DNA of 16,400 nt from positions 1 through 16,400 of the forward strand of contig JAWXBZ010000258.1 of NCBI GenBank assembly GCA_034440375.1. Reading direction: 5' to 3'. Of this stretch, positions 1 to 16,400 are shown in pieces. This DNA is from Candidatus Eiseniibacteriota bacterium (lineage in GTDB: Bacteria; Eisenbacteria; RBG-16-71-46; JABDJR01; JAWXBZ01). The notes below the pieces were generated by a model that made no database searches, was not told where the DNA came from, and was given only the letters and a program-made list of their open reading frames with translations. The position numbers and the translations under genes were made by a program. The first letter of the stretch is position 1, and every line of letters starts with the position of its first letter.

Positions 1-1963
1 CGCGCCGCGTATACGCGGCCACGTCGGATAGAATGGCGTTTCCGATCTGCTCCGCCGAATCTCCCCGGCGGGCCATCCCCGTAACCAGGGCGATCAACCG
101 TTCGTCACCGTACAGGTCAGCCCCCTGCGGTGCCTCGGTCACGCCATCCGAAAAGACAACGAGGACATCCCCGCGCCGAAAGGGCTGACGTCCTTCGTTG
201 TAGTCATCGATATCCATCAGGCCGAGCGGCAGACCGGTTGCCTCGAGAAGGACGACGTCGTCGGCGGTCACCAGGAACGGTGGATTGTGTCCGGCATTGC
301 AGAAGACGAGTTCCTCTTCGCTGGGAGACAGGGTCGCGAGAAAAAAGGTGGCGAAGCGGCCGCGCTCGACGGCCGTGTAAAGCGATCGATGCATGTGACG
401 GGCCATGTCGGCCGGGCTGGAGCTGTTCCGGGCCTCCACGTGAAGCGAGGCCCGGAGGTGTGACATCAAGAGCGAGGCGGAAACACCCTTTCCGGAAACA
501 TCCCCCAGCGCCACCAGGAGATCACCGTTCGGCCGGGGGATCCAGTCGAAGTAATCTCCGCCGACTTCCTGCGCCGGCATGTTGGTTCCAAATACGTCGA
601 GATCGGGAAGGTCCGGGGCTTGCTGGGGGAGGAGCTTCTGCTGAATGTCGCGGGCTAGTTGCAACTCGCGGTCCTGTTCGCCGGCATGTCGTTCCACGAA
701 AAAGAGTCGGAAGCTGCCGAGCGTGGCATAGACCAGGAACGGCAGCGTGGCGGGGAGGACCGACGGCATGTCGAGACGTCCCAGGGCCAGGCTGAAGAAG
801 GCCGTGGCCTGCCAGGCGACGGCGATGATCAGGACGCTGACGGCAGCCTGCAGCAGCGGACGGGTCATGACCAGCCAGCCGATCAACACGGTCGCCAGCG
901 TCCACAGGATCAGGAAGGTCGGCAACGAGACATGGCGCAGGAATCGACCTTCGAGGAGGGCGTCCAGGGCGTTGGCATGAACGTATACCAGCGGCGTCTT
1001 GTTGCTGAACGGTGTGGTCCCGATGTCGGCGGCGGCCTCGCCCACGGCGGTGTTGCCGACCAGCACGATCCGGTCCTGGAACGCCCGGCGAAGCAGCGAA
1101 TCCTGCCCGGAGCTGTACCACTGGACGACATCGAGCATCGAGTACTGGTTGGGAAAGGCATCCGAGTCGCCCGCGAAGTCGATGGCGGTGCCTCCCTCGC
1201 CATCGACCGGCATCTCGAGCCGCTCGCCATTCGCCCAGATGACGATGATGCCCCCGGGAGATCGTTCCGCCCGTGGCGGCTCTCTCTCTCCCCTGGCAAG
1301 GCCGATCATTCGAAGGGAGAGGGCAGGATAGACCCGATCGCGAAATCCGACCAGGAATGGGAGCCGACGGACAGGGCCGTCCTGGTCGAGCAGGACCGCT
1401 ACGTGCCCCAGCGCGTGGGAAGAGAAGAGAAGATCCTCGAACGGAAGGGCGATTTCGCTGGTCTGCCAGATGGGCAGCCCGGGGTTGGGAAAGCTGTCCA
1501 GCTTGAGGCGGGCGGCCCGATCATCCGGCAGGAAGTGCTCCGCTTCCAGGTTCGAATCCCGGGGGGGGAAGACGAAGGCGTGGACAACATTGGGAAACTC
1601 ACCGGTCAGGAGGGCCAGGGTCGAGTCGTCGGCTGCGTCGACGCGGTCGAACAGGAGGAGATCAAGACCGATGACGGCGGCCCCACCCTCACCCAGCGCA
1701 CCGATCAGCACCGCGTACTGGCTTCGGGGCAGCGGCCACCGGCCATAGGCCTCGATGGTCCGGTCGTCGATGGTCACCAGCGCGATGCGTGGCGAAGCAA
1801 GCTGTTTGCCGCGCAGCAGGTACCGGCCATCCCGAATCTTGAGGTCGGCCGTGCGGAAGACCCCCCCGACATGAAGAAGGCTGAGGACGGCCAGGCAGGC
1901 GATGGCGACCACGGTCCCCGCGATCAGGTGACGCGGATTTCGGCGTGCTCCGAGTTGGGGCAC
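1..1963 (-). CDS. CHASE2 sensor domain + transmembrane helices + SpoIIE/RsbU-type PP2C serine phosphatase (3' end runs off the window)
   Basis: Not in the ORF track. Hand translation from GTG at 1963 (7 nt after the upstream stop) is open to base 2. N-terminal TM (LIAGTVVAIACLAVLSLL). CHASE2 motifs: IALVTIDDRTIEAYGRWPLPR, GAAVIGLDLL, LGHVAVLLDQDGPVRRLP, FQDRIVLVGNTA, GTTPF, VYVHANALDALL. About three hydrophobic helices follow, then RELQLARDIQQKLLP and SpoIIE motifs EVGGDYFD, LGDVSGKGVSASLLM, CNAGHNPP, GLPLG, VVFSDGVTEA. Confidence 0.93.
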   Translation of the reverse strand, partial: MPQLGARRNPRHLIAGTVVAIACLAVLSLLHVGGVFRTADLKIRDGRYLLRGKQLASPRIALVTIDDRTIEAYGRWPLPRSQYAVLIGALGEGGAAVIGLDLLLFDRVDAADDSTLALLTGEFPNVVHAFVFPPRDSNLEAEHFLPDDRAARLKLDSFPNPGLPIWQTSEIALPFEDLLFSSHALGHVAVLLDQDGPVRRLPFLVGFRDRVYPALSLRMIGLARGEREPPRAERSPGGIIVIWANGERLEMPVDGEGGTAIDFAGDSDAFPNQYSMLDVVQWYSSGQDSLLRRAFQDRIVLVGNTAVGEAAADIGTTPFSNKTPLVYVHANALDALLEGRFLRHVSLPTFLILWTLATVLIGWLVMTRPLLQAAVSVLIIAVAWQATAFFSLALGRLDMPSVLPATLPFLVYATLGSFRLFFVERHAGEQDRELQLARDIQQKLLPQQAPDLPDLDVFGTNMPAQEVGGDYFDWIPRPNGDLLVALGDVSGKGVSASLLMSHLRASLHVEARNSSSPADMARHMHRSLYTAVERGRFATFFLATLSPSEEELVFCNAGHNPPFLVTADDVVLLEATGLPLGLMDIDDYNEGRQPFRRGDVLVVFSDGVTEAPQGADLYGDERLIALVTGMARRGDSAEQIGNAILSDVAAYTRR

Positions 1964-1970
1964 GGCGAAG

Positions 1971-2657
1971 CTAGCGACTCCAGTAGAGACTTGACGGCGC
2001 GGCGGCGCTCTCGTCGCCGCGGGGTCCGGCCGATCGCCAGGCTTGCGGCGTTCGTAAGGCCTTGTCCCGGGGCTTGCTCGGCGCTTTGACCGTTGCGGAA
2101 TCGCCAGGAGCGGGCGATGCCGGCACCTGCCGGGAGGCCTCCATGAGAAGCGCACGGACAGAGGCCTTGCTGAGGGTTCCACCCTCGGCGGCACGCTCCG
2201 CCGGAGCATCGGCCGAATCGCCATGAATGGCCATCAGGGCCGTGGCCTGTTCCACCCCGCCGGCCATCTCGATGGCACGCGAGGCCTCGCGCAGAGCACC
2301 GGCCTCGTCTCCCGCGGCCATCAACGCCACCGAGTGATTGATCGTCACGCCGGCGTCGGTGCTGTCGATCCCCAGCGCCCGAACGTAGAAGACCAGCGCC
2401 ACGTCGACGTCGTTCCGGAGGAAGTAGAGGTTGCCGATATTGTTCAGGGCGCCGGCATCTTGTGGCGCCAGGGAGAGCTGGGAAAGAAACGCCGTCTCCG
2501 CCTCGTCCAGCCGGCCGCCAAGAGCCAGCGAGATGCCGTACTCCCCGACCACGCCGGCGGCATTGCCGTCCGCCGGCTGGTCACTTCCCCGGGCGACCGC
2601 GACGGTGATCAGTCCGGCCAGGATCATGAGCGCACCCGCTCGACGTGTTCGCTTCAT
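1971..2657 (-). CDS. Exported tetratricopeptide-repeat protein, paralog of the C-terminal module of the upstream barrel protein
   Basis: 228 aa ORF. Strong SD (GAGGAGG) overlaps the upstream stop codon. Signal-peptide-like N-terminus MKRTRRAGALMILAGLITVAVARG. About three TPR units (e.g. APQDAGALNNIGNLYF, DAGVTINHSVALMAAGD). Ends LYWSR. Confidence 0.88.
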   Translation of the reverse strand: MKRTRRAGALMILAGLITVAVARGSDQPADGNAAGVVGEYGISLALGGRLDEAETAFLSQLSLAPQDAGALNNIGNLYFLRNDVDVALVFYVRALGIDSTDAGVTINHSVALMAAGDEAGALREASRAIEMAGGVEQATALMAIHGDSADAPAERAAEGGTLSKASVRALLMEASRQVPASPAPGDSATVKAPSKPRDKALRTPQAWRSAGPRGDESAAAPSSLYWSR

Positions 2658-2667
2658 CTCGACCTCC

Positions 2668-5184
2668 TCATGGCTTCCAGTACAGGTACTCGCGGAGCGC
2701 GTCCTCTCCCGCCCGGGCGGCGGCCACGCGCACGCCCTGCGGTTGCGGCGTGACCGCCGGTCGTTCCGGCGACAGACTGTCGGACGAGGCGGCGACGGTC
2801 GGAACGCGCTTCACTGCCTCGCGAAGCAGGCGCCGCACCTCTTCGGACGTGAGCCGTTTCTGGGCGGCACGTTCGTCGGGACGAGCCGGGATTCGGAGGA
2901 GTCTGGCCGCTTCCTTGTAACCGCCGGACAGTTCCAACCCTTGCACGACAGGATCCATCGCCTGACCGGAATCGCCGATGACATACCGGGCCAGGCCGAG
3001 ATTCAGCCAGATTCCCGCGTCGCGACGTTCCGTGTCAATTGCCTCGGCAAAGTAGTCGATGCTCCGCTCCAGTTCCCCAACGGCGGCGGCCACGACTCCC
3101 AGATTGTTGAGCAGGAGGGCCGAACCCGGAGCTCCCTCCAGCGCGGTTTCGAGCTGTCGGCGCGCCGCCTCGTAACGCCCGGAGCGGTACAGGAGTTCGG
3201 CCACCGTGCTCGCCGCCTGCGGCGACACAGCCGACGTGGCAGCCCCCCCGAAGCGTTCGGCGAGGAACTCGCTCCGTCGCGATGCCATCGTCGCGGTCTC
3301 CGCCGCGAAGAGTTCGTCAAACTTCCCGAGACGACCAAGGAACGCGGTCGAGGGTGTGCCGGGGAGTTCCGCCGGCAGGAAGGCGGCCTGCGAGGCCGCG
3401 ACATCCACCGTGTTGACGACATCCCGCGCCCGCCACGAGGCGTAGCTTTCGGCCCCGGCCGTCCAGGCCCCGGCGAAACCACGCGAGATCAGCGTGGTTT
3501 CGAGCGGAATCCAGATGGTCTCGTTCTCGACGACGTAGAGCGACTCGTCGACCGGAAGTCCCAGCCGGTTTCGCTCATGAACCCCCGAGTCGAACATGAG
3601 AAAGATATGCCCCGGCACGTCCACGAATCGAGTAGCGATCCCGAGGTTTTCCAGCAGGGAGCAAACCAGCACCGTGGTGTCGTCGCAATCGCCCACGCCG
3701 CTGGCCAGCGTTTCCCGTGGATAGTGGATCGTGTCGACGGCCCGCGATTCTTCCGAAATGGTCGCGAACGGATTGCTCGGGTCGGGAACGTAGGCCAGGC
3801 CGAGCGCCTGCAGCGCCGAAATCACCGCGGCGGCGAAGGATAGATTGCGATTTTGGAACGGGCCCGTTCCCGCCCGGGCCGCCTCGCCGGCGACCTGCCG
3901 GGCCAGGGCGTCCACAGCTGGATCACGCGTGGTGACGAAGGCTGCGGCCTGCTCCATGCCGCCGCCCCAGTTGATCGCGCCCGGAGCGTAGGCCAGGCAC
4001 TTGGAGTTTCGCTTCTCGGTCCGCGAGAGCCGGGCGCTCTGATAGGACACCGACACCTGGACCGGAACCTGGCGGTCGCCGGCCAGCTTCATGACCTTGT
4101 CGGACAGCACGGCGGGCAGCTCGATATCCAGCGAGGCTCGCGGCCTCAACAAGACTTCGGTCTCCGAGCGTTCATCCATCAGGTCGGGGAGCAGAAGCCC
4201 GACCCGGACCGTGAGCGGCGAGTCCTTGAGATTCCGCAGGCGCACGCGAGCCACCGGTTTCGTGTCGTACGACTTGTAGAGCGAGGTGTAGACCTCGTTG
4301 GCCTCCACCTGCTCGATTCGCACCTGGGCCGGATTGAAGTTGAAGGCAATGCCCAGATCGAAGTGGTTCGTCTCCCCCAGGTCGGGATGAAACTCGACGG
4401 CATAGTCAAACTTGATGATGCCCAGCCGGACGCCCGTGCCCGCGCTCCAGACGGTTCCCTCGGGGCCGCCGGTGTCATCCTGGAACCCGGCTCGAAACGC
4501 CAGGAAATCGACCGGGGAATACTCGACTCCGGCGTGGAGGCGATCGTCCAGATCCATTGCCAGCAGCAGGGGCTGGAACGGATTCCATGCGGCGGCCAGG
4601 CGAAGACTGCTCGGGTAGACGACCGTCGAGCCGACGTCCGAGTAATCGAGGCTGGTATCCTGGAAATCCTGGAGGACGACGCCGAGACGGGCGTGCTCGG
4701 AGAGAACGGTCATGAGCCCGAGGTCGAGTCCAAACCCCCGGCCGCTGCCGAGCGTCACGCCGTCCAGTCCGATGTTCCGTGACAGGTACTTCACGTTGAC
4801 CCCGACCGCCACGCGGCGATGCAGTCGCTGCGACCAGGCCAGGTCGAGACGATTCTCTCCGAAGTCAAGTTCGTTATCGTCGTACCCGTTGCTGTACCAG
4901 TCGAAGGCCGCAGCCTGGTCAGGCGTGAATGGAACGACGGCACCGATCACGTTCTGCTTGAGTCCGGTGCCGTAAAGATTCGCATGGGAACCGACCAGCT
5001 CCTGGTGCCCGAGCTGGCACAGCCCGGCCGGATTCCAGAAGATGGCCGATGCGTCGTCGGCCACGGCCGAATAGGCGCCGCCAAGGGCGATGGCGCGCGC
5101 TCCCATCGCCACCTGTTCCCGGGCCGCGGCGGCGGGCCCGGCAGTCAGCGCGAACAGGCCGGCGATCAGGACCGGCCGGATCAT
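2668..5184 (-). CDS. PorV/PorQ-family outer-membrane beta-barrel fused to an Ig-like domain, a transglutaminase-like cysteine-peptidase domain and TPRs
   Basis: 838 aa. Signal peptide, then the PorV/FadL-like N-terminal motif MGARAIALGGAYSAVADDASAIFWNPAGL and amphipathic strands ending NHFDLGIAF (~aa 281). Transglutaminase-like core: PRETLASGVGDCDD (Cys500), DVPGHIF (His526), WIPLETT (Glu562). C-terminal TPRs (LLNNLGVV, IWLNLGLARY). ATGA overlap with the upstream gene. Confidence 0.87.
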   Translation of the reverse strand: MIRPVLIAGLFALTAGPAAAAREQVAMGARAIALGGAYSAVADDASAIFWNPAGLCQLGHQELVGSHANLYGTGLKQNVIGAVVPFTPDQAAAFDWYSNGYDDNELDFGENRLDLAWSQRLHRRVAVGVNVKYLSRNIGLDGVTLGSGRGFGLDLGLMTVLSEHARLGVVLQDFQDTSLDYSDVGSTVVYPSSLRLAAAWNPFQPLLLAMDLDDRLHAGVEYSPVDFLAFRAGFQDDTGGPEGTVWSAGTGVRLGIIKFDYAVEFHPDLGETNHFDLGIAFNFNPAQVRIEQVEANEVYTSLYKSYDTKPVARVRLRNLKDSPLTVRVGLLLPDLMDERSETEVLLRPRASLDIELPAVLSDKVMKLAGDRQVPVQVSVSYQSARLSRTEKRNSKCLAYAPGAINWGGGMEQAAAFVTTRDPAVDALARQVAGEAARAGTGPFQNRNLSFAAAVISALQALGLAYVPDPSNPFATISEESRAVDTIHYPRETLASGVGDCDDTTVLVCSLLENLGIATRFVDVPGHIFLMFDSGVHERNRLGLPVDESLYVVENETIWIPLETTLISRGFAGAWTAGAESYASWRARDVVNTVDVAASQAAFLPAELPGTPSTAFLGRLGKFDELFAAETATMASRRSEFLAERFGGAATSAVSPQAASTVAELLYRSGRYEAARRQLETALEGAPGSALLLNNLGVVAAAVGELERSIDYFAEAIDTERRDAGIWLNLGLARYVIGDSGQAMDPVVQGLELSGGYKEAARLLRIPARPDERAAQKRLTSEEVRRLLREAVKRVPTVAASSDSLSPERPAVTPQPQGVRVAAARAGEDALREYLYWKP

Positions 5185-8100: not shown

Positions 8101-8543
8101 TTGGGCGTGCCGAACCAGAGATCACCGGCGTGATCCTCGAGAATGGCCTGAACGTTATCGCTTGGCAGATGCCCCGAGGCGACCGAAAAGATGCGGCGTT
8201 CCCTGGTCGCCTCGCGAAACTGAACTGCCCCTCCGCCCTGAATGCCAAACCAAAGAAATTGATCTTCTGTCTCCGTGATCGCCTGGACTACCGGGTTGGC
8301 GGTGCCCAGGTCCGGAGAAAGCCATCGAAAACCGTCGAAGCGGGAGGGCCCTCGCGGTGTACCAAACCAGAGGCTCCCCGTTCGATCTTCCAGGAGCGCC
8401 AGGACCTGTCCGTCGGCAAGGCCGTCGCGGGAGCCGCGATAGCTCTGCCATTCAGCCCGGAGTGGGGCGGCCGCGAACAGCGTCCATACCGCGGCCAGGG
8501 CGATCACTGCGGATCGCGGCTCACCTGTTCGGATGGGTTTCAT
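5181..8543 (-). CDS. Secreted two-component-regulator-type beta-propeller protein with Ig-like and ZU5-like domains and a FlgD-Ig/T9SS-like C-terminal domain
   Basis: The ORF is open from 8621. ATG 8543 gives a clean signal peptide (MKPIRTGEPRSAVIALAAVWTLFAAAPLRA|EW); ATGs at 8558 and 8582 are alternatives. About 15 Reg_prop repeats, a Y_Y_Y/Ig-like domain (GLADGRHLFEVEARD...DPTPA), a second Ig (WDTQKFPDGNYEMRLVVED) and a ZU5-like segment (GGDVYTTGGEVHLYFPPRAF). C-terminal domain IPRVFTPDGG...VRVFNRAGRMVREL...WDGRDDDGTVVTDGLYFVRV. No TM helix or kinase domain. Confidence 0.87.
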   Translation of the reverse strand: MKPIRTGEPRSAVIALAAVWTLFAAAPLRAEWQSYRGSRDGLADGQVLALLEDRTGSLWFGTPRGPSRFDGFRWLSPDLGTANPVVQAITETEDQFLWFGIQGGGAVQFREATRERRIFSVASGHLPSDNVQAILEDHAGDLWFGTPNGLVRREAAGGQWTTFQPESGGLVHPNAWRLLEDSQRFLWVATPEGVGRLAPDRLSWESFRADPDGLGRDSVLAMAEDLSGGIWFGTDQGAWRWRLVAGVPEWKHFQEADGLRNTTVLAIHVDEVGGVWFGGTRGIDHFDGRTWRTYSTTTDGLPLGRVFSLLVDRSRNLWVGTESNGLFRYDRVDIQGFIAPEGFSDCSPRPALGGRIQPILASNCVQGLVEDQFGEIWAATSDRGAARLDRSGRWTFLRRAAGRSLSDSLSSVFLDSGGRLWFGSGNVSGFGRYAGVSILESDRVTWTAWRGPGVLPDDNVLSLHEDRAGTAWVGTAAGVAARSGGTWRPFLSRSVVGYDVQVYAIQEDSTGGIWLRTSDGLFRMAPGASGPVALGPADGLWTTDVRALFPAPGGEVWIAAAGGFGVWRDGVVTRSPLTTEDAEAIYRTMSGDIWVGLSNGALRLPSSGAHELHAGDVLGSTPVTRIFGDRSGTVWVATFGGLARFNGVGWNRFTTSDGLVSDQISHFLEDVRGRLWFGSFSGISQYDPDETAPQTVFVSTPPAISATRNVRFVFAAGYGEVADVEYRSALDSQSSNWTPNVTTEFFGLADGRHLFEVEARDWSRNADPTPARLEFEVDATPPPAVISAPAFGQAVQGAQVVRGTASDPRFRHYRLELRPAEHSSWDGPSVTRLDEGSEPIELGPLADWDTQKFPDGNYEMRLVVEDTLGLTGIAQLSLVVDNEAPFANVTTPVRIAAFTGGDVYTTGGEVHLYFPPRAFSLDAVVTIQPAPESGGPAEGAAPVVAWDIDWGNPRLEKAGVVELSPGSPVTEPLTLHRSIDQGLSWSRLGGSPAGSGGSIVGIIDQPGRYALFPEGSPPDGGSEFSRPIVIPRVFTPDGGSPGQVAISFTLGRSAEATVRVFNRAGRMVRELAHQVPMTSGINLLRWDGRDDDGTVVTDGLYFVRVESGDESRTQTLVVRR
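6483..8424 (-). repeat. About 15 tandem Reg_prop beta-propeller blade repeats (protein level)
   Basis: Recurring L-x-x-x-x-V-x-x-I/L-x-ED-x-x-G-x-L/IW-F/V-G/AT-x-x-G units, e.g. LPSDNVQAILEDHAGDLWFGTPNGL, LPDDNVLSLHEDRAGTAWVGTAAGV, LVSDQISHFLEDVRGRLWFGSFSGI. Confidence 0.85.
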
Positions 8544-8955
8544 GCGAGTGTCGGGCATCCTGAAATACCCCGCCGGGTCCATTGATTCACTGCCGGCAAA
8601 GGCGGCTCCACCTGGGGGCAAGCGTGAAAATCCCCCCCATGTCAGGTCGCCTCGGCGCGGTTGGCTCTCATCTGCTTAGAAGGACCGACCCTGTCCCAGT
8701 TGGTTGACTCCGAATCAGACCGTGCCTGTCATTTATTCCTGCCCCATGCGGAGTGGCACGTCATCGTGAGGGGCGGGGCAGAACAACCCAAGGCGGCCGG
8801 CCGACTGCCAGGTGCGCATTTGACTCCATCTTCCATCAGGGTAGCGGCCCGAGGCGGGAGATGATTCGTTCCGGATCGAGCCGGATCATGCTACATCGCT
8901 GTGACGACGGCAAGACAAACTGGGCCACTGGAGTGACGCTTTCGCGGAGAACCGA

Positions 8956-9741
8956 TCAGCAGGCCCGGATCGGCTTCACTGCACCCACCTTCACCGACAC
9001 GACCGAGTCGAACGCCGCGCGCTCCGGGCTGTCGGCCGGTAACGAATCAACACCAACGTCGTAGCGACTCTCGTTGAGGACTTCGACCGAGGCCAGTCCA
9101 GCCTCCCGCATCATGCCAAGGTACTCCTCCTTCATCGAGGCGCCGGCAACGCAACCAATGTAGAGATCGACCGACTTCTGCATCTCCAAAGTCAGCGGTC
9201 GCGTCAGCACCAGGTCACTGACCAGCAGGCGACCGCCGGGCTTCAGCACCCGGAAGGCTTCGCGAAACACCTGCGGCTTGTCCGGCGACAGGTTGATGAC
9301 GCAATTCGAGATGATCAGATCCACGCTCGAGTCGGCCACCGGCAGATGCTCGATCTCCCCGAGACGGAATTCGATGTTGGCCTCGGCGACCTTCGTGGCG
9401 TTGGCGCGGGCTTTCGCCAGCATCGCCGGCGTCATGTCGACACCGATGACCCGGCCGGTCGGCCCTACCTCGCGCGCGGCCAGAAAACAGTCAATGCCCG
9501 CCCCCGAACCAAGGTCAAGGACCGTCTCGCCCGGTTTCACCTCCGCCAGGGCCAGAGGATTTCCGCATCCAAGCCCGAGGTTCGCGCCTTCGGGAATGGC
9601 CGAGGCCTGCTCGGCGGAATAGCCGATCTCGGTCAGCACGTCGGTGCCGCACGAGCCACCGCAGCAGCCGGTCCCCGAGGGGCGGCCCTCGGCGATGGCC
9701 CCGTACTTCTCGCGGACGACTTCACGAATGTCTTCGCTCAC
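8956..9741 (-). CDS. arsM: Arsenite S-adenosylmethionine methyltransferase
   Basis: 261 aa, GTG start overlapping the arsR stop (GTGA). Motifs: N-terminal [19 protein letters not shown] motif [43 protein letters not shown]. Confidence 0.93.
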
Positions 9742-10085
9742 TTTCCTTCTCCTTTCCGTGGCTCCACCAAGGAGCCCAGTTCCTCGAACAGCTCACGCAA
9801 TCTCCTGAGTCCAGACGCATCGACGCAATAACAGACGCGGGGGCCGTCAATTTCGCCCTGGATGAGTCCGGCCTCCTTCAGCACCTTGAGATGCTGTGAA
9901 ACGGTCGCCTGGGCGAGCGGCAATTCATCGACAATTGCACCGCAGACACACTCACCCCGGCGGATCAGCAGCCTCAGGATGGCCACCCGCGCGGGATGGC
10001 CGAGCGCCTTGGCCAGCCGGCCAAGTTCAATATCGCGGGGCCGCGCCGACTGGCGCGAGGCGGAGGATCGAGAGTCTGGTTTCAT
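9738..10085 (-). CDS. arsR: ArsR/SmtB-family metalloregulatory repressor
   Basis: 115 aa. [12 protein letters not shown], metal-site-like [27 protein letters not shown], wing GPRVCYC. Directly upstream of arsM. Confidence 0.92.
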
Positions 10086-10187: not shown

Positions 10188-10370
10188 CTAGTCTTGAGGA
10201 ATCGGCTGGGGGCCCGGGCGGATATGGGCGATATCAGGGTCCTCGCCGTTTTCGGGCCGCTCTACGGTTGTACTCTGGCGCAATGCCTTTTTTTCGGCCT
10301 TACGCACTTGCCGTGCCTTCGAAGCGAGTTCTTTCTGACGCTTGGCGAATGAGGTTTGTCGGTTTGCCAA
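10188..10370 (-). CDS. Small basic hypothetical protein (60 aa)
   Basis: TTG start with SD AAGGGGAG and a perfect TATAAT upstream. K/R-rich helix (SFAKRQKELASKARQVRKAEKKALR) then EDPDIAHIRPGPQP, a tail I recall from a family of small hypothetical proteins (unverified). Confidence 0.72.
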   Translation of the reverse strand: MANRQTSFAKRQKELASKARQVRKAEKKALRQSTTVERPENGEDPDIAHIRPGPQPIPQD

Positions 10371-10423
10371 AACAGTGATCTCCCCTTGGAAGCGGAAAAG
10401 GACGCTGGATCGTTGAGGGGACC

Positions 10424-10429
10424 ATTATA
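10424..10429 (-). promoter_or_regulatory. Putative -10 box (TATAAT) for the 60-aa gene
   Basis: Perfect TATAAT on the minus strand in GC-rich DNA, about 54 nt upstream of the TTG start. No convincing -35. Confidence 0.5.
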
Positions 10430-10741
10430 GGCCAGAACGGGTCAGGGCATGACACGCACCTTCGGGTCACAACGCCGGCCCGGCCAGGGGCCTGATAGAC
10501 TATGTCCTCAATGGCCAGTCCGGCCGGATTCCTGAGCCCAAATTGCGAGGTCGCCACCCACCCCCTGGAGATCAACAACCTGTGCCGCAACAGTTTGGCC
10601 TGCAGCCTCGTCGCCGCCATCATTCTGACGCTTCCCGCCCTCTCCCCCTGGATCAAGTTGCGGTAGGATTCCACCCCTCTTACCAAATGGGCCGCACGCG
10701 GCGCCCCTGACATTTCAGCCACGAAAGTGACGGATCCCGGC

Positions 10742-12307
10742 ATGGCAATCACGAGCAACTTCATGAAAATCCTTGGCCTCACCGATAAACATGCCGGCGG
10801 ATTTGCCGGTGAGTGGATCGGTTCAGGCCCGGTCCTTGCGGTCACCTCTCCGATCGACGGTTCAACCATCGGCTCGGTGACGCAGGTGACCGAAGCGGAA
10901 TATGACCAGATCGTGACCCGGGCCCATGCGGCATTTCTGGAGTGGCGCAAGCTGCCGGCGCCCCGGCGCGGGGAAATCGTCCGACGGCTCGGCAATCGCC
11001 TGCGCGATCTGAAGACTGAACTGGGGCAGCTCGTCACCCTTGAGATGGGCAAGGTCACCTCCGAGGGTGAGGGCGAAGTTCAGGAGATGATCGACATCTG
11101 CGATTTCGCCACCGGCCTGTCGCGCCAGCTCTACGGCCTCACGATGCACTCGGAGCGGCCGGACCACCGCATGTACGAGCAGTGGCATCCGCTCGGCGTT
11201 GTCGGCGTCATCAGCGCCTTCAACTTTCCGGTGGCGGTCTGGAGTTGGAACGCCGCCATCGCGGCCGTCTGCGGCGATTCAACCGTCTGGAAACCGGCCA
11301 GCAAGACACCCCTGACCGCCATCGCCTGTACGCGGATTGCGGAACAGGTATGCCGGGAGAGTGGCGTCGATCCGGCGGTTTTCTCGCTGACCATCGGCAA
11401 GGGTTCCACCGTGGGCGACCGGATGCTGCATGACCGTCGCGTGCCGCTGGTATCGGCCACCGGCAGCTGCAAGATGGGCGAGCGGGTTGCCCAGGTCGTC
11501 AATGGCCGTTTTGGCCGGACGATCCTCGAACTCGGCGGGAACAACGCCATCGTCGTGACCCCCAACGCCAACATGGATCTGGCCCTGCGGGCCATCCTGT
11601 TCGGCGCCGTGGGTACGGCCGGGCAGCGCTGCACCTCCACGCGCCGGATCATCGCCCACGAATCGATCAAGAAGGCGCTGGTTCAGCGACTTGTGAAAGC
11701 CTACGAAGGAATCCCGATCGGCGATCCGCGCAAGGCATCGACCCTGATGGGGCCGCTCGTCACCCACGAGGCTGTTTCCGATATGCAGAAGGCCATCGAG
11801 CGGCTGAAGGCCGAAGGCGGCACGGTGGTGTACGGCGGCGATGTTCTGAGCGGCGCCGATTTTCCCGGCGGGCATTACGTCAAGCCCTGTATCGCCCTGG
11901 CCCGGAACGAATACCAGATCGTCCAGGATGAAACCTTCGCGCCGATTCTGTACATCATCGGATATGGCTCGAAGAGTTCATCCCCGGCCGAAGCCATCAA
12001 GGAACTCGATGAGGCCCTGGCACTCCACAACGGGGTGCCGCAGGGCCTCTCGTCGTCCATCTTCACCGACAACATGCGCGAGGCCGAAATTTTTCTATCG
12101 TATCAAGGCTCCGACTGCGGCATCGCCAACGTCAACATCGGCACCAGTGGGGCGGAAATCGGCGGCGCCTTCGGGGGCGAAAAGGATACCGGTGGCGGCC
12201 GCGAATCGGGCTCCGACGCCTGGAAGGTGTACATGCGACGCCAGACCAACACCATCAACTGGAGCACCAGCCTGCCGCTGGCCCAGGGGGTCAAGTTCGG
12301 AGATTGA
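10742..12307 (+). CDS. amaB: Aldehyde dehydrogenase family 7 (antiquitin / L-piperideine-6-carboxylate dehydrogenase, AmaB/Pcd-like)
   Basis: ALDH7 signatures: EGEGEVQEMIDICDFATGLSRQLYG, EQWHPLGVVGVISAFNFPVAVWSWN, catalytic Glu in LELGGNNA, catalytic Cys in GTAGQRCTSTRR, VNIGTSGAEIGGAFGGEKDTGGGRESGSDAWK, LPLAQG. Start could be 10727, 10742 or 10763. Confidence 0.9.
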   Translation: MAITSNFMKILGLTDKHAGGFAGEWIGSGPVLAVTSPIDGSTIGSVTQVTEAEYDQIVTRAHAAFLEWRKLPAPRRGEIVRRLGNRLRDLKTELGQLVTLEMGKVTSEGEGEVQEMIDICDFATGLSRQLYGLTMHSERPDHRMYEQWHPLGVVGVISAFNFPVAVWSWNAAIAAVCGDSTVWKPASKTPLTAIACTRIAEQVCRESGVDPAVFSLTIGKGSTVGDRMLHDRRVPLVSATGSCKMGERVAQVVNGRFGRTILELGGNNAIVVTPNANMDLALRAILFGAVGTAGQRCTSTRRIIAHESIKKALVQRLVKAYEGIPIGDPRKASTLMGPLVTHEAVSDMQKAIERLKAEGGTVVYGGDVLSGADFPGGHYVKPCIALARNEYQIVQDETFAPILYIIGYGSKSSSPAEAIKELDEALALHNGVPQGLSSSIFTDNMREAEIFLSYQGSDCGIANVNIGTSGAEIGGAFGGEKDTGGGRESGSDAWKVYMRRQTNTINWSTSLPLAQGVKFGD

Positions 12308-12593: not shown

Positions 12594-12890
12594 CTACCCC
12601 CCCGCAATCGCCCCCACCACCAGCAACGGTTCCGCGCCGGAAACGATGGGCTCCGGCAATGGCGCGTCCGGTGATTCGTGGGACCAGTCTTCCTGGCAGG
12701 CGAAGAAGCGCAGGAAGTCCCGGCGCTTCAGTGTGACATGGTCGCGAATCGTCCCACGCAGCACGGGATAGCGGGCCTCGAGCGTGTCGAGGACCGATCG
12801 GAGTGTGATCGGTGCCTCGACATCGAGTTCCACCTCGCCCTCGACGCGCGCCAGGGTCCGCAGGTGCGCGGGCAGTTCCACCCGGATCAT
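12594..12890 (-). CDS. MoaD/ThiS-family ubiquitin-like (beta-grasp) protein
   Basis: 98 aa. [28 protein letters not shown]-terminal AIAGG-stop. ATGA overlap with the upstream BNR gene. Confidence 0.9.
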
Positions 12891-14002
12891 GCCAGCGTCT
12901 GGACCTCGACGGACAGCACCGCGGGGAGATCGCGCACGATGGCCGTCCAGTTATCGCCGGAGTCGGTGGATGCGTACACCTGACCGCCGGTGGTGCCGAA
13001 GTAAATGCCGCACGAATCGAGCTGGTCGACAGCCATGGCATCGCGCAGCACGTTCACGTAGCAATCGCTCTGCGGCAACCCCTTGGTGAGCGCTTCCCAT
13101 TCGTTGCCGCCGGTTCGGCTGCGGTAGACACGTAGCTTGCCCTCGGGCGGAAAGTGCTCCGAGTCGTTCTTGATCGGAACGACATAAATGGTTTCCGGCT
13201 CGTGGGCGTGCACATCAATTGGAAATCCGAAATCGGTCGGCAGGTTGCCGCTGACTTCGTGCCATGAATCGCCGGCGTCGTCGCTGCGCATGACGTCCCA
13301 GTGCTTCTGCATGAACAGCACGTTCGGCCGCGAGGGGTGCAAGGCGATGCGATGAACGCAGTGGCCGATTTCGGCGTCCGGGTCGGGAATGTACTGGGAC
13401 CTGAGCCCCTTGTTGATCGGCTTCCAGGTGGTGCCGCCGTCCTCGGTGCGGAAAGCGCCAGCGGCCGAGATGGCGATGAAGATCCGCTGGGGATTGGTCG
13501 GGTCGATCAGAATGGTGTGCAGCCCCAGGCCCCCGGCGCCCGGCGACCACTGCGGACCCGTATTGTGATTGCGCAGTCCCGACATTTCATGCCACGACGC
13601 GCCACCGTCGGTCGTGCGGAACATGGCCGCGTCCTCCACGCCGGCGTAGACCATGTCCGGATCGGTCAGCGACGGCTCCAGGTGCCATACCCGCTTGAAC
13701 TCCCATGGATGCTGCGTGCCGTCGAACCACTGGTGCGTGCCGGGAATGCCGTCATAAACGAATTTATTGTCGACCGGCTCCCAACTTTTGCCGCCGTCGT
13801 TGGAGCGCTGGATCATCTGCCCGAACCAACCGCTGCACTGGGAGGCGTACAGGCGATCCGGATCCACCGGTGAACCCTTGACGTGATACATCTCCCAGCC
13901 CGCGAACAGCGGGCCTTCGACCCCCCACTTCATGCGCATGGCATCCGATGTCAGGACAAACGCGCCCTTCTTGGTTCCGACGAGAACTCGAACGGTGCTC
14001 AC
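12887..14002 (-). CDS. Cytoplasmic BNR/Asp-box beta-propeller (sialidase-like, WD40/YVTN/BNR family)
   Basis: The true start is probably GTG 14002 ([26 protein letters not shown]), giving 371 aa. Six Asp-box-like motifs: [54 protein letters not shown]. No signal peptide. Confidence 0.9.
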
Positions 14003-14145
14003 GATGACTCCTTCCTGATCCGCGCGGTGGTCGCGCGCCGCCTGACCCGGGAACTTCCGATGGGCGCGGATCCTACCAGCGGTCCACTCGCCGATGCTAT
14101 TATCCCTGACCTTGGAAACGCCGGTGGCGGCCCAATTTTTACACC

Positions 14146-14154
14146 TGTTACAAT
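14146..14154 (+). promoter_or_regulatory. Extended -10 promoter element for the kinase gene
   Basis: TG-t-TACAAT in an AT-rich patch, 11 nt before ATG 14166. No SD between them. Confidence 0.55.
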
Positions 14155-14165
14155 CGGATCTCCCC

Positions 14166-16400
14166 ATGACGCTCACGCCCGGCACGCGCGTTGGTCCCTA
14201 CGAAATCCTGGGTCCCCTCGGGGCCGGCGGGATGGGGTTGGTTTATCGCGCGCAGGATCCCCGGCTGGAACGCCAGGTGGCCATCAAGGCGCTGCCGGAG
14301 GCGATGTCGGGGGATGCGGAACGGCTGGCTCGCTTCGAGCGCGAAGCGCGTGTCCTGGCCTCGCTGAACCATCCGAACATCGCGGCCATTTACGGGCTGG
14401 AAACCCTCGAGGGTGTGCCGCATCTTGTCCTCGAACTGGTGGACGGGGAAACCCTGTCCGCGCGGCTGGCCCGAGGGGCCATGGCTCCGGTCGTGGCACT
14501 CGACATCGGCATGCAGGTGGCGGCGGCCATCGAAGCCGCGCATGACGGGGGCATCGTGCACCGCGATCTGAAGCCCGGCAACGTCATGATCACAGGTGCC
14601 GGGATGGTCAAGGTCCTCGATTTCGGACTGGCCAAGGGAGCCGCCGCCGTGTCGTCCGCGTCGTCGCCCGATCTGTCGGCCTCGCCCACGATGGCCCTGT
14701 CCGCCACGCGCGAAGGAATGATTCTCGGCACGGCTCCCTACATGAGTCCCGAGCAGGCGCGCGGGCAGGCAGTGGACCGGCGCACCGACGTGTGGGCCTT
14801 CGGATGTCTCTTGTACGAGTGCTTGTCCGGCCGTCCGACGTTTTCCGGGGACACCGTGTCGGACGTCGTGGCCCGCATCCTCGAGCGGGAGCCCGACTGG
14901 GGGCTGCTGCCGGCTGCGTTGCCACCCCGCATCCTGGACATCGTGCGCCGCTGTCTGACCAAGGAGATGGCCCAGCGTCCGCGGGCCATCGGTGACCTGC
15001 GCCTGGAACTGGGTGCGATCCGTCTGGAGATGTCGTCGCCGACAATGGCCCGACCGGCGACCGCGTCCGCTCGGCCGTCGCTGGCGGTTCTCTACTTCGA
15101 AAACCTGTCCAGTGATTCGGAGAGTGACTATTTCTGCGCCGGCATCACCGAGGACATTCTCACTGATCTCTCCAAGATCAAGGGATTGAATGTGGCCTCG
15201 CGGAACGCGGTGGCCCGCTATCGCGGCAAGACTGTCGATCCGGCGCAGGTCGGGGCCGAACTCTCGGTCACGGCCGTGCTTGAAGGAAGCGTGCGTCGCG
15301 CGGGCGATCGCGTCCGTATCTCCGCGCAGTTGATCAACGCCGCCGACGGCTTTCACCTCTGGGCCGACCGCTACGACCGAACGATGGAGGATGTCTTTGC
15401 CGTGCAGGAGGAGATTGCCGCCTCGATCACCGAAGCGCTCCGCGTGGCGTTGACTCCGGCGGAAGCCGAAGCGCTGATCGGCAATCGTCCCGATGACGTG
15501 CGGGCCTACGACCTGTACCTGCGCGGCCGCGATCAGTACGGCCGTTACCAGGCCGACAGTCTGAAGGAGGCCGTCGAGCTGTTCGAGCAGGCCATCGCCA
15601 TCGACCCGAACTACGCGCTGGCCTGGGCCGGACTGGCCGACGCCTGCGCGCAGACGATGCACTGGGGTTATGCGTCCGACCCGGCGGCCATGCTGAACAA
15701 GGGGCTGGCCGCGGCCCGCAAGGCCATCAACCTGAATCCGTCGCTCGCGGAGGGTCATAAGGCCGAGGCGTTGAATCTTCGCGGCCTGAACGACGTCGAG
15801 GGGGAGATTCGGTCACTGGGCCAGGCTATCGAGGCCAATCCCCGCTATCTCCCCGCGATCATCAACCTCGCCGTGGTGGCCTTCGAATCGGGCAATGTGG
15901 CTGGTGCGGAACGAGGTCACCGGCGTGCCCTCGAAATCGACCCGCAGGAAGCCTTCGCCACCACCTGGCTCATGGGGATCACCCACATGACAGGGCGCCC
16001 TGACGAAACCCTGGCCCTCGCCGAACGGCTTCTCGAAATTTCCGACAAACCGTTTTACATGACCGCTTCGTACATGACCCAGGCAATTCTTGCCAACAGG
16101 CAGGGCGACCCAGCCGCCGCCGGCGCACTGCTGGTCCGGGCCGCCGCCGCCGGCGCGGATGCCTCGAACATGAGGTCCGTCGAAGCAATGCTGCACGCCG
16201 CGTCCGGCCGCCCGGCCGAAGCGCTCGAACTGCTGCGGGAGATGGCCCCCCATAGCGGCCTCAACACCGGCACCCTGTTGCTCGCTGCCCGCATTTCCAT
16301 GCAGCTCGGCGAACCCGAGATGGCCCTCTCATTTTTCGAGCGCCCAATTGTCGGGCACCTGGTGCCGACCATGCTCCGCCTCCACCCAGAATTCCACCCC
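14166..16400 (+). CDS. Hanks-type Ser/Thr protein kinase with TolB-N-like domain and TPR repeats (3' end runs off the window)
   Basis: Not in the ORF track; hand translation is open to the window end. Kinase motifs: [61 protein letters not shown]. TolB_N-like [11 protein letters not shown]...[14 protein letters not shown]...[19 protein letters not shown]...LWADRYDR. TPRs: [24 protein letters not shown]. Confidence 0.95.

Follow-up and report, generated by a model that had tools for sequence, protein, structure and literature searches.

P0001, the 838-residue product of an open reading frame (ORF) on the minus strand (positions 2668..5184) of a 16,400-nucleotide stretch of Candidatus Eiseniibacteriota DNA (contig JAWXBZ010000258.1; hereafter the window), is predicted to join an outer-membrane beta-barrel homologous to PorV to an Ig-like sandwich, a transglutaminase-like enzyme domain, TPRs and a conserved tail. 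P0001 stands at the center of a conserved envelope module of four genes, which also comprises a propeller protein bearing a type IX secretion C-terminal domain (CTD), a small TPR protein and a CHASE2 receptor. The reading favored here, which is tentative and plausible rather than probable, is that P0001 would be anchored in the outer membrane and act in the periplasm, as a LapG-like protease or transamidase, at the sensory side of the CHASE2 receptor, with its barrel holding the propeller protein at the surface as PorQ holds PorZ. All of the domains are known, and their combination and the conserved four-gene set appear to be undescribed: in the open-access literature searched, no paper was found that joined PorV with a transglutaminase-like domain or Eisenbacteria with type IX secretion, and CHASE2 and transglutaminase were found together in unrelated contexts only.

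Domain architecture and spread of the fusion

The P0001 ORF is open over 838 residues, and all features given below lie on the minus strand. A putative signal peptide (5122..5184; residues 1-21, MIRPVLIAGLFALTAGPAAAA), judged by eye from the translation, is followed by a PorV/PorQ-family FadL-type beta-barrel (4336..5112; residues ~25-283). The match to the NCBIfam family PorV_fam (NF033709) had an E value of 2.4e-23 and joined residues 25-281 to positions 9-326 of the 326-position profile, and the barrel of a fused KSB1 relative cleared the curated cut-off of this family (116.7 > 90 bits). A profile built from 25 barrel regions and searched against the PDB had PorV of F. johnsoniae as its top solved match (6h3i_F, E 7e-13; alignment spanning PorV residues 36-239 and 327-395). 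Foldseek with a full-length AlphaFold model of P0001 (built on 40 homologues; predicted local distance difference test score (pLDDT) of 82) returned FadL (2r89_A, 8.8e-9) and PorV (6h3i_F, 1.9e-8, template-modeling (TM) score by target 0.59). Sixteen strand elements were assigned by DSSP to residues 61-281, a region that is all-strand, and residues 1-60 were poorly modeled; the PorV barrel has 14 strands. Scores fell below the equivalog cut-offs for PorV (26 vs 250), PorQ (23 vs 220) and PorV2 (55 vs 325), and phmmer with the whole of P0001 against PDB sequences returned TPR proteins only. On this profile and model evidence, the N-terminal part of P0001 is a predicted PorV-homologous barrel, which bears out the PorV-like barrel proposed in a first-pass annotation of the window; the end of the segment HFDLGIAF at residue 281, also noted there, was confirmed. 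About 550 residues follow in the same ORF, an architecture other than that of a stand-alone barrel.

The barrel is followed by an Ig-like beta-sandwich (3985..4323; residues ~288-400) and by a helical lobe with a transglutaminase-like core (3349..3972; residues ~405-612). Because barrel matches dominated the Foldseek output for the full-length model, a second model was made of residues 285-650 (built on 37 sequences; pLDDT 93, predicted TM score 0.91), and it comprised a beta-sandwich, a helical lobe, the core and long helices. Strands at 288-399 were assigned to the sandwich by DSSP in both models, and CARDB matches to it were present in 5 of 37 relatives. Foldseek with the second model picked out mostly this sandwich, to which the stronger matches were confined; among the structures returned were Fsx1, MG domains of complement C3 and the sandwich of factor XIII (E 3e-4 to 3e-3). 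Pfam Transglut_core (PF01841) matched 34 of the 37 relatives at E<=1, with a best value of 1.7e-6, and the protein of locus L036 exceeded the family cut-off of 23 bits, at 27.2. The second model also matched animal transglutaminase structures in Foldseek, among them TG2 (9bc3_A; E 1.1e-3, probability 0.91, 389 columns, TM 0.23, root-mean-square deviation 15.7 Å), with similar matches of ~390-400 columns to TG3 (8oxx) and TG2 (2q3z). When a profile of the module was searched against the PDB, the best match was LapG (4u65_E), at E 0.38 and over 56 profile positions around the Cys only; in that alignment GDCDD of P0001 falls on GDCED of LapG, and VD..P upstream is aligned as well. On these sequence and model comparisons the enzyme domain is called transglutaminase-like, of predicted papain fold, and not a member of the LapG family.

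The catalytic residues named in the first-pass annotation were recovered at their places, the residues by script and the nucleotides by arithmetic. Cys500 (codon 3685..3687, in VGDCDDT) is the first residue of helix 500-513, His526 (3607..3609, in PGHI) is the first residue of strand 526-536, and Glu562 (3499..3501, in WIPLETTL) stands directly after strand 556-561, so that P0001 has the ordered Cys...His...acid set with Cys at a helix N-terminus, the acid being Glu. Approximately 212 full-length relatives were found at 45-50% identity, the few named ones being Candidatus Eisenbacteria, and in an alignment of 40 full-length homologues (A1) C500, H526 and E562 were invariant in 40/40, together with G498, D499, D501, D502, P524, W558, P560 and T564. 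A wider set of 37 module sequences, from loci titled Eisenbacteria, KSB1, Fibrobacter, Ignavibacteria, Spirochaetes and others and 27-55% identical to P0001, was invariant (37/37) at W406, Y465, D468, D484, P489, G498-D502, L506, H526, E562-T564 and F570. The conservation of the triad that the first-pass annotation had left to be checked in homologues is therefore seen in both sets, and the invariance of Cys, His and Glu across lineages argues for a working, putatively functional active site. Calcium-coordinating residues flank the catalytic Cys of LapG, and the acidic residues around Cys500 recall, by analogy, the calcium site near the LapG active site.

C-terminal to the core are a TPR domain (2899..3222; residues ~655-762), assigned from Pfam TPR families, consensus-TPR structures and the helices of the model, and a tail (2671..2862; residues ~775-838) in which a conserved helix is followed by a disordered linker and then by an R-x-A-A/G-x-R-A-x-D/E block, with a LYWK motif at the end.

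Searched exhaustively, 1.84 billion cluster representatives yielded 1154 proteins at E<=1e-30, and local per-domain hidden Markov models made from alignment A1 were run on the best 150 of the representatives clustered at 50% identity. Barrel and enzyme domain occurred together in 122 of these 150 best representatives, and the enzyme domain without the barrel in 23 of them, many of which were short fragments. A joining of two genes by sequencing error was considered and is ruled out by this count, from which the barrel-enzyme fusion of P0001, judged on sequence, is real and widespread; the fusion to a transglutaminase-like domain claimed in the first-pass annotation is thus genuine. Public names of the family are TPR protein, putative transglutaminase-like protease or hypothetical.

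The relatives that lack the barrel differ in what precedes the module. Long examples (P0239 and P0258) carry a Reg_prop propeller and Y_Y_Y ahead of the Ig, enzyme and TPR parts in a single chain, TPR or NHL repeats precede the module in P0257 and P0260, and in Fibrobacter-type loci ~370 residues before the module are not PorV-like and gave weak CsgG/LpoB/FlgT-like leads. Within L036 (8909-11686) this region comprises residues 1-385 and has the same weak leads, and in L034 a separate CsgG-like gene (8436-9185) lies directly upstream of the module. From these sequence comparisons, the constant unit is predicted to be Ig, enzyme, helices and TPR, with or without the tail, and the N-terminal part varies.

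As a separate observation, the Ig and enzyme module (P0001 residues 347-599) also matched positions ~10-325 of the 1903 positions of NCBIfam NF058533, 'anti-phage protein ProA', at E 4e-11, and 12 of 13 relatives scanned (from loci L029-L051) did so too. PADLOC returned nothing for the four proteins of the set, and the match was read as one to a common domain module in place of a defense role; literature searches found no paper on ProA.

The four-gene set and its conservation

In the window, whose G+C fraction is 0.60-0.69, four closely packed minus-strand ORFs encode, in 5' to 3' gene order, P0002 (5181..8621; 1146 residues as listed), P0001, P0272 (1971..2657; 228 residues) and P0003 (2..1963, listed as 2..2224, and running off the window end). 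The stop of P0002 and the ATG of P0001 overlap as ATGA, and GGAGG and the ATG of P0272 follow 10 nt past the stop of P0001. The listed ATG start of P0003 (2224) overlaps P0272 by 254 nt, with an Arg/Pro-rich extra stretch. A GTG at 1963, 8 nt past the P0272 stop, is the more probable start: read from there, the protein begins with a short basic stretch and continues into a hydrophobic segment. With its ATGA overlap and its gaps of 10 and 8 nt, the packing of the four genes looks like that of an operon. A scan for promoters and terminators was uninformative (1 promoter-like site vs 0.9 expected; 1 terminator-like site vs 6.1 expected).

P0002 consists of Reg_prop beta-propellers (Pfam Reg_prop, 1.9e-52), Ig-like domains (FlgD_ig, 35.5 bits against a cut-off of 27) and a type IX secretion CTD (NCBIfam Por_Secre_tail, 26 bits against a cut-off of 23); its T9SS_PorZ score of 81.8 against a cut-off of 260 makes it no PorZ equivalog. 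The CTD, recognized by profile, lends indirect support to a link with type IX secretion. P0272 has a signal-peptide-like N-terminus, ends in LYWSR and is predicted to be a small secreted TPR protein, and P0003 is a predicted CHASE2 receptor (Pfam CHASE2, 1.7e-47) with a SpoIIE/PP2C phosphatase output (SpoIIE, 7.4e-41).

Conservation of the set was followed in 55 loci, one genome per species, by local tblastn with the window proteins; 53 of the loci had a P0001 match, and the taxon labels of some loci come from their submitters and may not be reliable. Of the 28 Eisenbacteria-type loci (L001-L028), 21 had a P0002 homologue directly upstream and 3 had one elsewhere in the locus; in the other 4, one of them with no flank, none was seen. 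Giant propeller proteins with a type IX CTD were also encoded upstream where the propeller type differs (PorZ_N/Reg_prop in L030; BNR/Sortilin in L034 and L038). Downstream, a small TPR gene with an [LV]YWK tail was present in 25/28 Eisenbacteria-type loci, and a CHASE2 gene was directly downstream in 25/28 of these and in nine distant loci (L030-L037 and L052, of KSB1, Fibrobacter and Ignavibacteria types), for a total of 34/53. The Eisenbacteria-type loci without CHASE2 directly downstream were L027, where the flank is missing, and L021 and L022, additional copies in a genome whose full set lies at L025. Gene order thus supports a genetic tie of P0001 to all three neighboring proteins (CTD cargo, TPR and CHASE2).

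The pair of propeller and barrel-enzyme genes occurred two or three times in some metagenome-assembled Eisenbacteria genomes, one with L021, L022 and L025 and another with L007 and L010, and in the former two of the three copies are without the TPR and CHASE2 genes.

The output domains of the CHASE2 proteins vary. When 25 partners were assigned with Pfam, 6 had Pkinase, 11 SpoIIE, 6 Guanylate_cyc and 2 an unrecognized output, the window's own being SpoIIE. Since the sensor is constant while the outputs vary, the site of action suggested for the module is the extracytoplasmic, sensory side of CHASE2. Swaps of this kind are seen when L001, L003, L004, L013, L014 and L015 are set against L002, L005 and others, and L032-L037 belong to the same comparison, with the CHASE2 part and the upstream module unchanged.

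Two features that the first-pass annotation had missed connect P0272 with P0001, namely that P0272 resembles the C-terminal third of P0001 and that both proteins end in the same LYW tail. BLASTP of P0272 against residues 669-837 of P0001 gave a colinear alignment of 180 residues (31% identity, E 9e-16), by which P0272 is a free paralogue of the TPR and tail part of P0001. Both tails have three blocks: a helix (L-S/T-x-E-E-V/I-R-x-L-L), a variable Pro/Ala/Lys-rich linker and a terminal block of R-x-A-A/G-x-R-A/G-x-D/E followed by [LVF][LVF]-Y-W-K close to the very end. In alignment A1 (40 homologues), W836 was invariant and Y835 was conserved in at least 90%, and the motif recurs in proteins of Fibrobacter and Ignavibacteria type (RGADP...LLYW) as well as in the Reg_prop fusions (FYWGEQG, FYWME). 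The full-length model gave the final 8 residues of P0001 a pLDDT of 83 after ~35 residues below 45, which suggests that the tail motif is docked on some folded part. TPRs commonly bind C-terminal peptides, and it is therefore possible that tail and TPRs bind in cis, or in trans between P0001 and P0272.

Co-occurrence of tail and receptor was counted on the 50 loci in which the ORF was complete and 1.5 kb or more of downstream sequence was available. Both the tail motif and a CHASE2 gene downstream were present in 29, the motif only in 3, CHASE2 only in 5 and neither in 13 (Fisher p = 9e-6, uncorrected for phylogeny). Three of the five CHASE2-only loci look like near-misses: in L024 the tail sits a little way in from the end, L032 has the variant LLVW, and the ORF of L013 stops early.

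Other genes in the window lie apart from the set. Within 10 kb are a BNR/Sortilin-type propeller protein (12887-14185, minus strand), in which a type IX secretion tail was not seen, and a Ser/Thr kinase with TPRs (14094-16400, plus strand). On the minus strand at 8956-10085, an ArsR-family regulator overlaps a SAM methyltransferase (Methyltransf_31, 1.5e-39), and this pair looks like a separate small operon with no relation to the barrel-enzyme finding. A 252-residue ORF on the minus strand (10300-11058) had no family match and overlaps the start of an aldehyde dehydrogenase gene on the opposite strand; it is probably not a gene.

Proposed role and competing explanations

In the favored reading, P0002 would be exported and probably held at the surface by docking of its CTD on the barrel, by analogy with PorZ on PorQ. 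The C-terminal part of P0001 is most likely periplasmic, because the termini of the barrel face the periplasm and the partner domain CHASE2 is extracytoplasmic; the weak CsgG/LpoB/FlgT-like region that takes the place of the barrel in barrel-less relatives agrees with this location. There, the enzyme/TPR part and P0272, which has the same tail, would work on the sensory side of the CHASE2 receptor, as is suggested by the gene order and by the pattern of constant sensor and variable output. The enzyme domain would most likely work in a manner analogous to LapG, as a cysteine protease with a regulatory role, and action as a transamidase is less likely; its candidate substrates would be the conserved tails or the CHASE2 ectodomain, and the outcome would be an altered cytoplasmic phosphatase, kinase or cyclase output. 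A complex prediction made with residues 285-770 of P0001, a construct without the tail, and the CHASE2 ectodomain of P0003 (residues 124-432) scored 0.26 against a mark of 0.32 and speaks neither for nor against binding. The first-pass annotation had given equal weight to the cargo and to the TPR/CHASE2 partner as targets of the enzyme. The genetic tie extends to all of them; the comparative data favor a link to the CHASE2 sensory side over processing of the cargo, since CHASE2 remains constant while its output domain changes.

Several points weigh against this assignment. P0001 itself scored 83.3 bits against PorV_fam, 6.7 short of the curated cut-off of 90, and Transglut_core scored 21.3 bits with the whole protein and 22.5 with the sub-region against a cut-off of 23. 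Solved transglutaminases match weakly in fold (E ~1e-3, TM ~0.2, root-mean-square deviation ~15 Å). The third catalytic residue is Glu and not the usual Asp, and Glu562 would stand opposite His526 if strands 526-536 and 556-561 are antiparallel neighbors, an arrangement assumed from the secondary structure. The periplasmic placement of the C-terminal part is itself derived from barrel topology. The Reg_prop fusions place propeller and enzyme in one compartment, which is awkward for a surface propeller and a periplasmic enzyme, and the same fusions support a functional link between the two. CHASE2 was not directly downstream in 19/53 loci (Spirochaete-type, some Fibrobacter-type, Latescibacterota-type and a few others, with the L021 and L022 extra copies), so it is not an obligate partner of the module. 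The synteny counts are not independent of phylogeny, and kinship limits the tail/CHASE2 statistic to about four lineages with both features against three with neither.

Among the alternatives, P0001 could be the cargo processor of a type IX-like attachment complex, in which the enzyme domain would cleave the CTD of its neighbor as PorU does on PorV, or attach the cargo by transamidation. This is judged unlikely, even with a barrel that is a PorV homologue, a CTD protein encoded directly upstream with stop/start overlap, the recurrence of such proteins upstream in other lineages, and a transglutaminase-fold thioester chemistry that resembles the one used by sortases. In the known system (PMC10202324), PorV holds the Cys/His peptidase PorU, which processes the CTD on the cell surface. 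A domain that comes after an even-stranded barrel, by contrast, should lie in the periplasm. The module, moreover, also occurs with neither barrel nor CTD neighbor, in Fibrobacter- and Ignavibacteria-type loci, and keeps the CHASE2 partner there. Homology to PorU was not seen either, P0001 having no NCBIfam match to it at E<=0.1 and P0002 a weak one confined to the CTD region (18.6 vs 420 bits), and P0272 and CHASE2 would be left unexplained. CHASE2 likewise tells against a structural role, in which the enzyme domain would covalently attach the barrel protein, or its TPR partners, to other proteins of the envelope or to peptidoglycan and so stabilize the outer membrane: true transglutaminases cross-link proteins, the order of sandwich and core mirrors that of animal transglutaminases (TG2 and TG3, ~390-400 columns), and P0001 is predicted to be outer-membrane-anchored with protein-binding TPRs, but a tether of this kind fails to predict a conserved CHASE2 partner with interchangeable outputs. 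Most characterized bacterial transglutaminase-like domains are hydrolases, no peptidoglycan-binding domain was found in Pfam and NCBIfam scans, and this explanation is considered very unlikely.

The marginal family scores would fit a pseudo-enzyme domain that binds a partner, with P0001 acting as an adaptor through its TPRs and tail. Inactive transglutaminase folds exist, Rad4/XPC being an example, and adaptors are typically built with such parts as TPRs and a C-terminal peptide, the final 8 residues of P0001 being confidently modeled after a disordered linker; the invariance of Cys, His, Glu and the acidic flanks of the Cys in 37/37 sequences as distant as 27-55% identity to P0001 is nevertheless unlike known inactivated members, and a non-catalytic scaffold is regarded as highly improbable. 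Least probable of all, and hardly to be expected, is display of the Ig/enzyme/TPR part outside the cell, threaded through or beside the barrel in the manner of an inverse autotransporter. An N-terminal barrel followed by Ig-like domains is the layout of intimin- and invasin-type proteins, and the neighboring P0002 is a predicted surface protein, but the barrel is of FadL/PorV type and not of intimin type, TPR proteins with signal peptides are usually periplasmic, and the CHASE2 partner and the weak CsgG/LpoB/FlgT-like leads of the barrel-less relatives point to the periplasm. None of these explanations accounts for the CHASE2 pattern as well as the favored reading of an anchored periplasmic enzyme on the sensory side of the receptor.

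That reading can be carried further, to an undescribed trans-envelope route that is put forward as a distinctly unlikely elaboration. A surface propeller exported by type IX secretion would sit on the PorV-like barrel, and the periplasmic protease, possibly calcium-dependent, would edit the 'R-A-x-D ... LYW' tails of P0001 and P0272, the tail peptide or its loss being read by CHASE2. If true, the module would be a general CHASE2 input device in the Fibrobacterota-Chlorobiota-Bacteroidota group and its relatives. CHASE2 is a widespread sensor with few known inputs or natural ligands, and a partner that stays constant while the receptor outputs swap offers testable candidates acting on it, in its enzyme domain, its TPRs and the LYW tail that it shares with P0272. 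Known PorV-like barrels serve type IX secretion at the outer face as shuttles and anchors, and a conserved periplasmic enzyme would extend their role. With the fusion in no fewer than 122 clusters at 50% identity, the family is large, and the four-gene set points to an unstudied signal route across the bacterial envelope.

Comparison with known systems

Known PorV, PorQ and PorP proteins are described as stand-alone barrels, whereas P0001 adds ~550 residues comprising the enzyme domain, the TPRs and the tail. In its FadL-type PorV-homologous barrel and its adjoining propeller-rich CTD protein, P0001 is like the PorQ-PorZ and PorV-PorU pairs of Porphyromonas gingivalis and PorP/SprF; the PorQ-PorZ lineage is Bacteroidota, in contrast to Candidatus Eisenbacteria for P0001. 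According to PMC10202324, the CTDs of PorZ and PorU stay uncleaved and bind PorQ and PorV, and PorV-like barrels serve specific cognate substrates.

The order of sandwich and core in P0001 is that of animal TG2, TG3 and factor XIII. The match to these enzymes is weak, however, the third residue is another one, P0001 is without their C-terminal barrel domains, and the biology is entirely different.

LapG, as described in PMC4359373, is a periplasmic C-H-D protease of transglutaminase fold that is bound by the periplasmic domain of its receptor and has calcium near its active site, with conserved coordinating residues. The LapG/LapD pair resembles the present set in that a periplasmic transglutaminase-fold Cys enzyme with acidic Cys flanks is tied to a membrane signaling receptor. 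It differs in several respects: the similarity of P0001 to LapG is not significant (E 0.38), Glu takes the place of Asp, LapG is soluble whereas the P0001 enzyme would be tethered to an outer-membrane barrel, and LapD is a cyclic di-GMP receptor whereas the CHASE2 proteins have phosphatase, kinase or cyclase outputs. A Pfam scan of 12 window ORFs found no genes for a LapD-type receptor, a LapA-type adhesin or type I secretion. LapG-LapD is accordingly used as a working analogy for an enzyme that may act on receptor output.

A parallel for the barrel and the receptor is found in Sinorhizobium meliloti, whose CHASE2 cyclases need the outer-membrane barrel NsrA to perceive a protein signal (PMC13001267). 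NsrA with CyaD1/CyaD2/CyaK is likewise a barrel with CHASE2 receptors, barrel and receptor being linked in the present set by gene order, and an enzyme domain is not mentioned for NsrA in the introduction and discussion passages of that paper. NsrA is by analogy a precedent for a relay from barrel to CHASE2, of the kind in which P0001 may take part.

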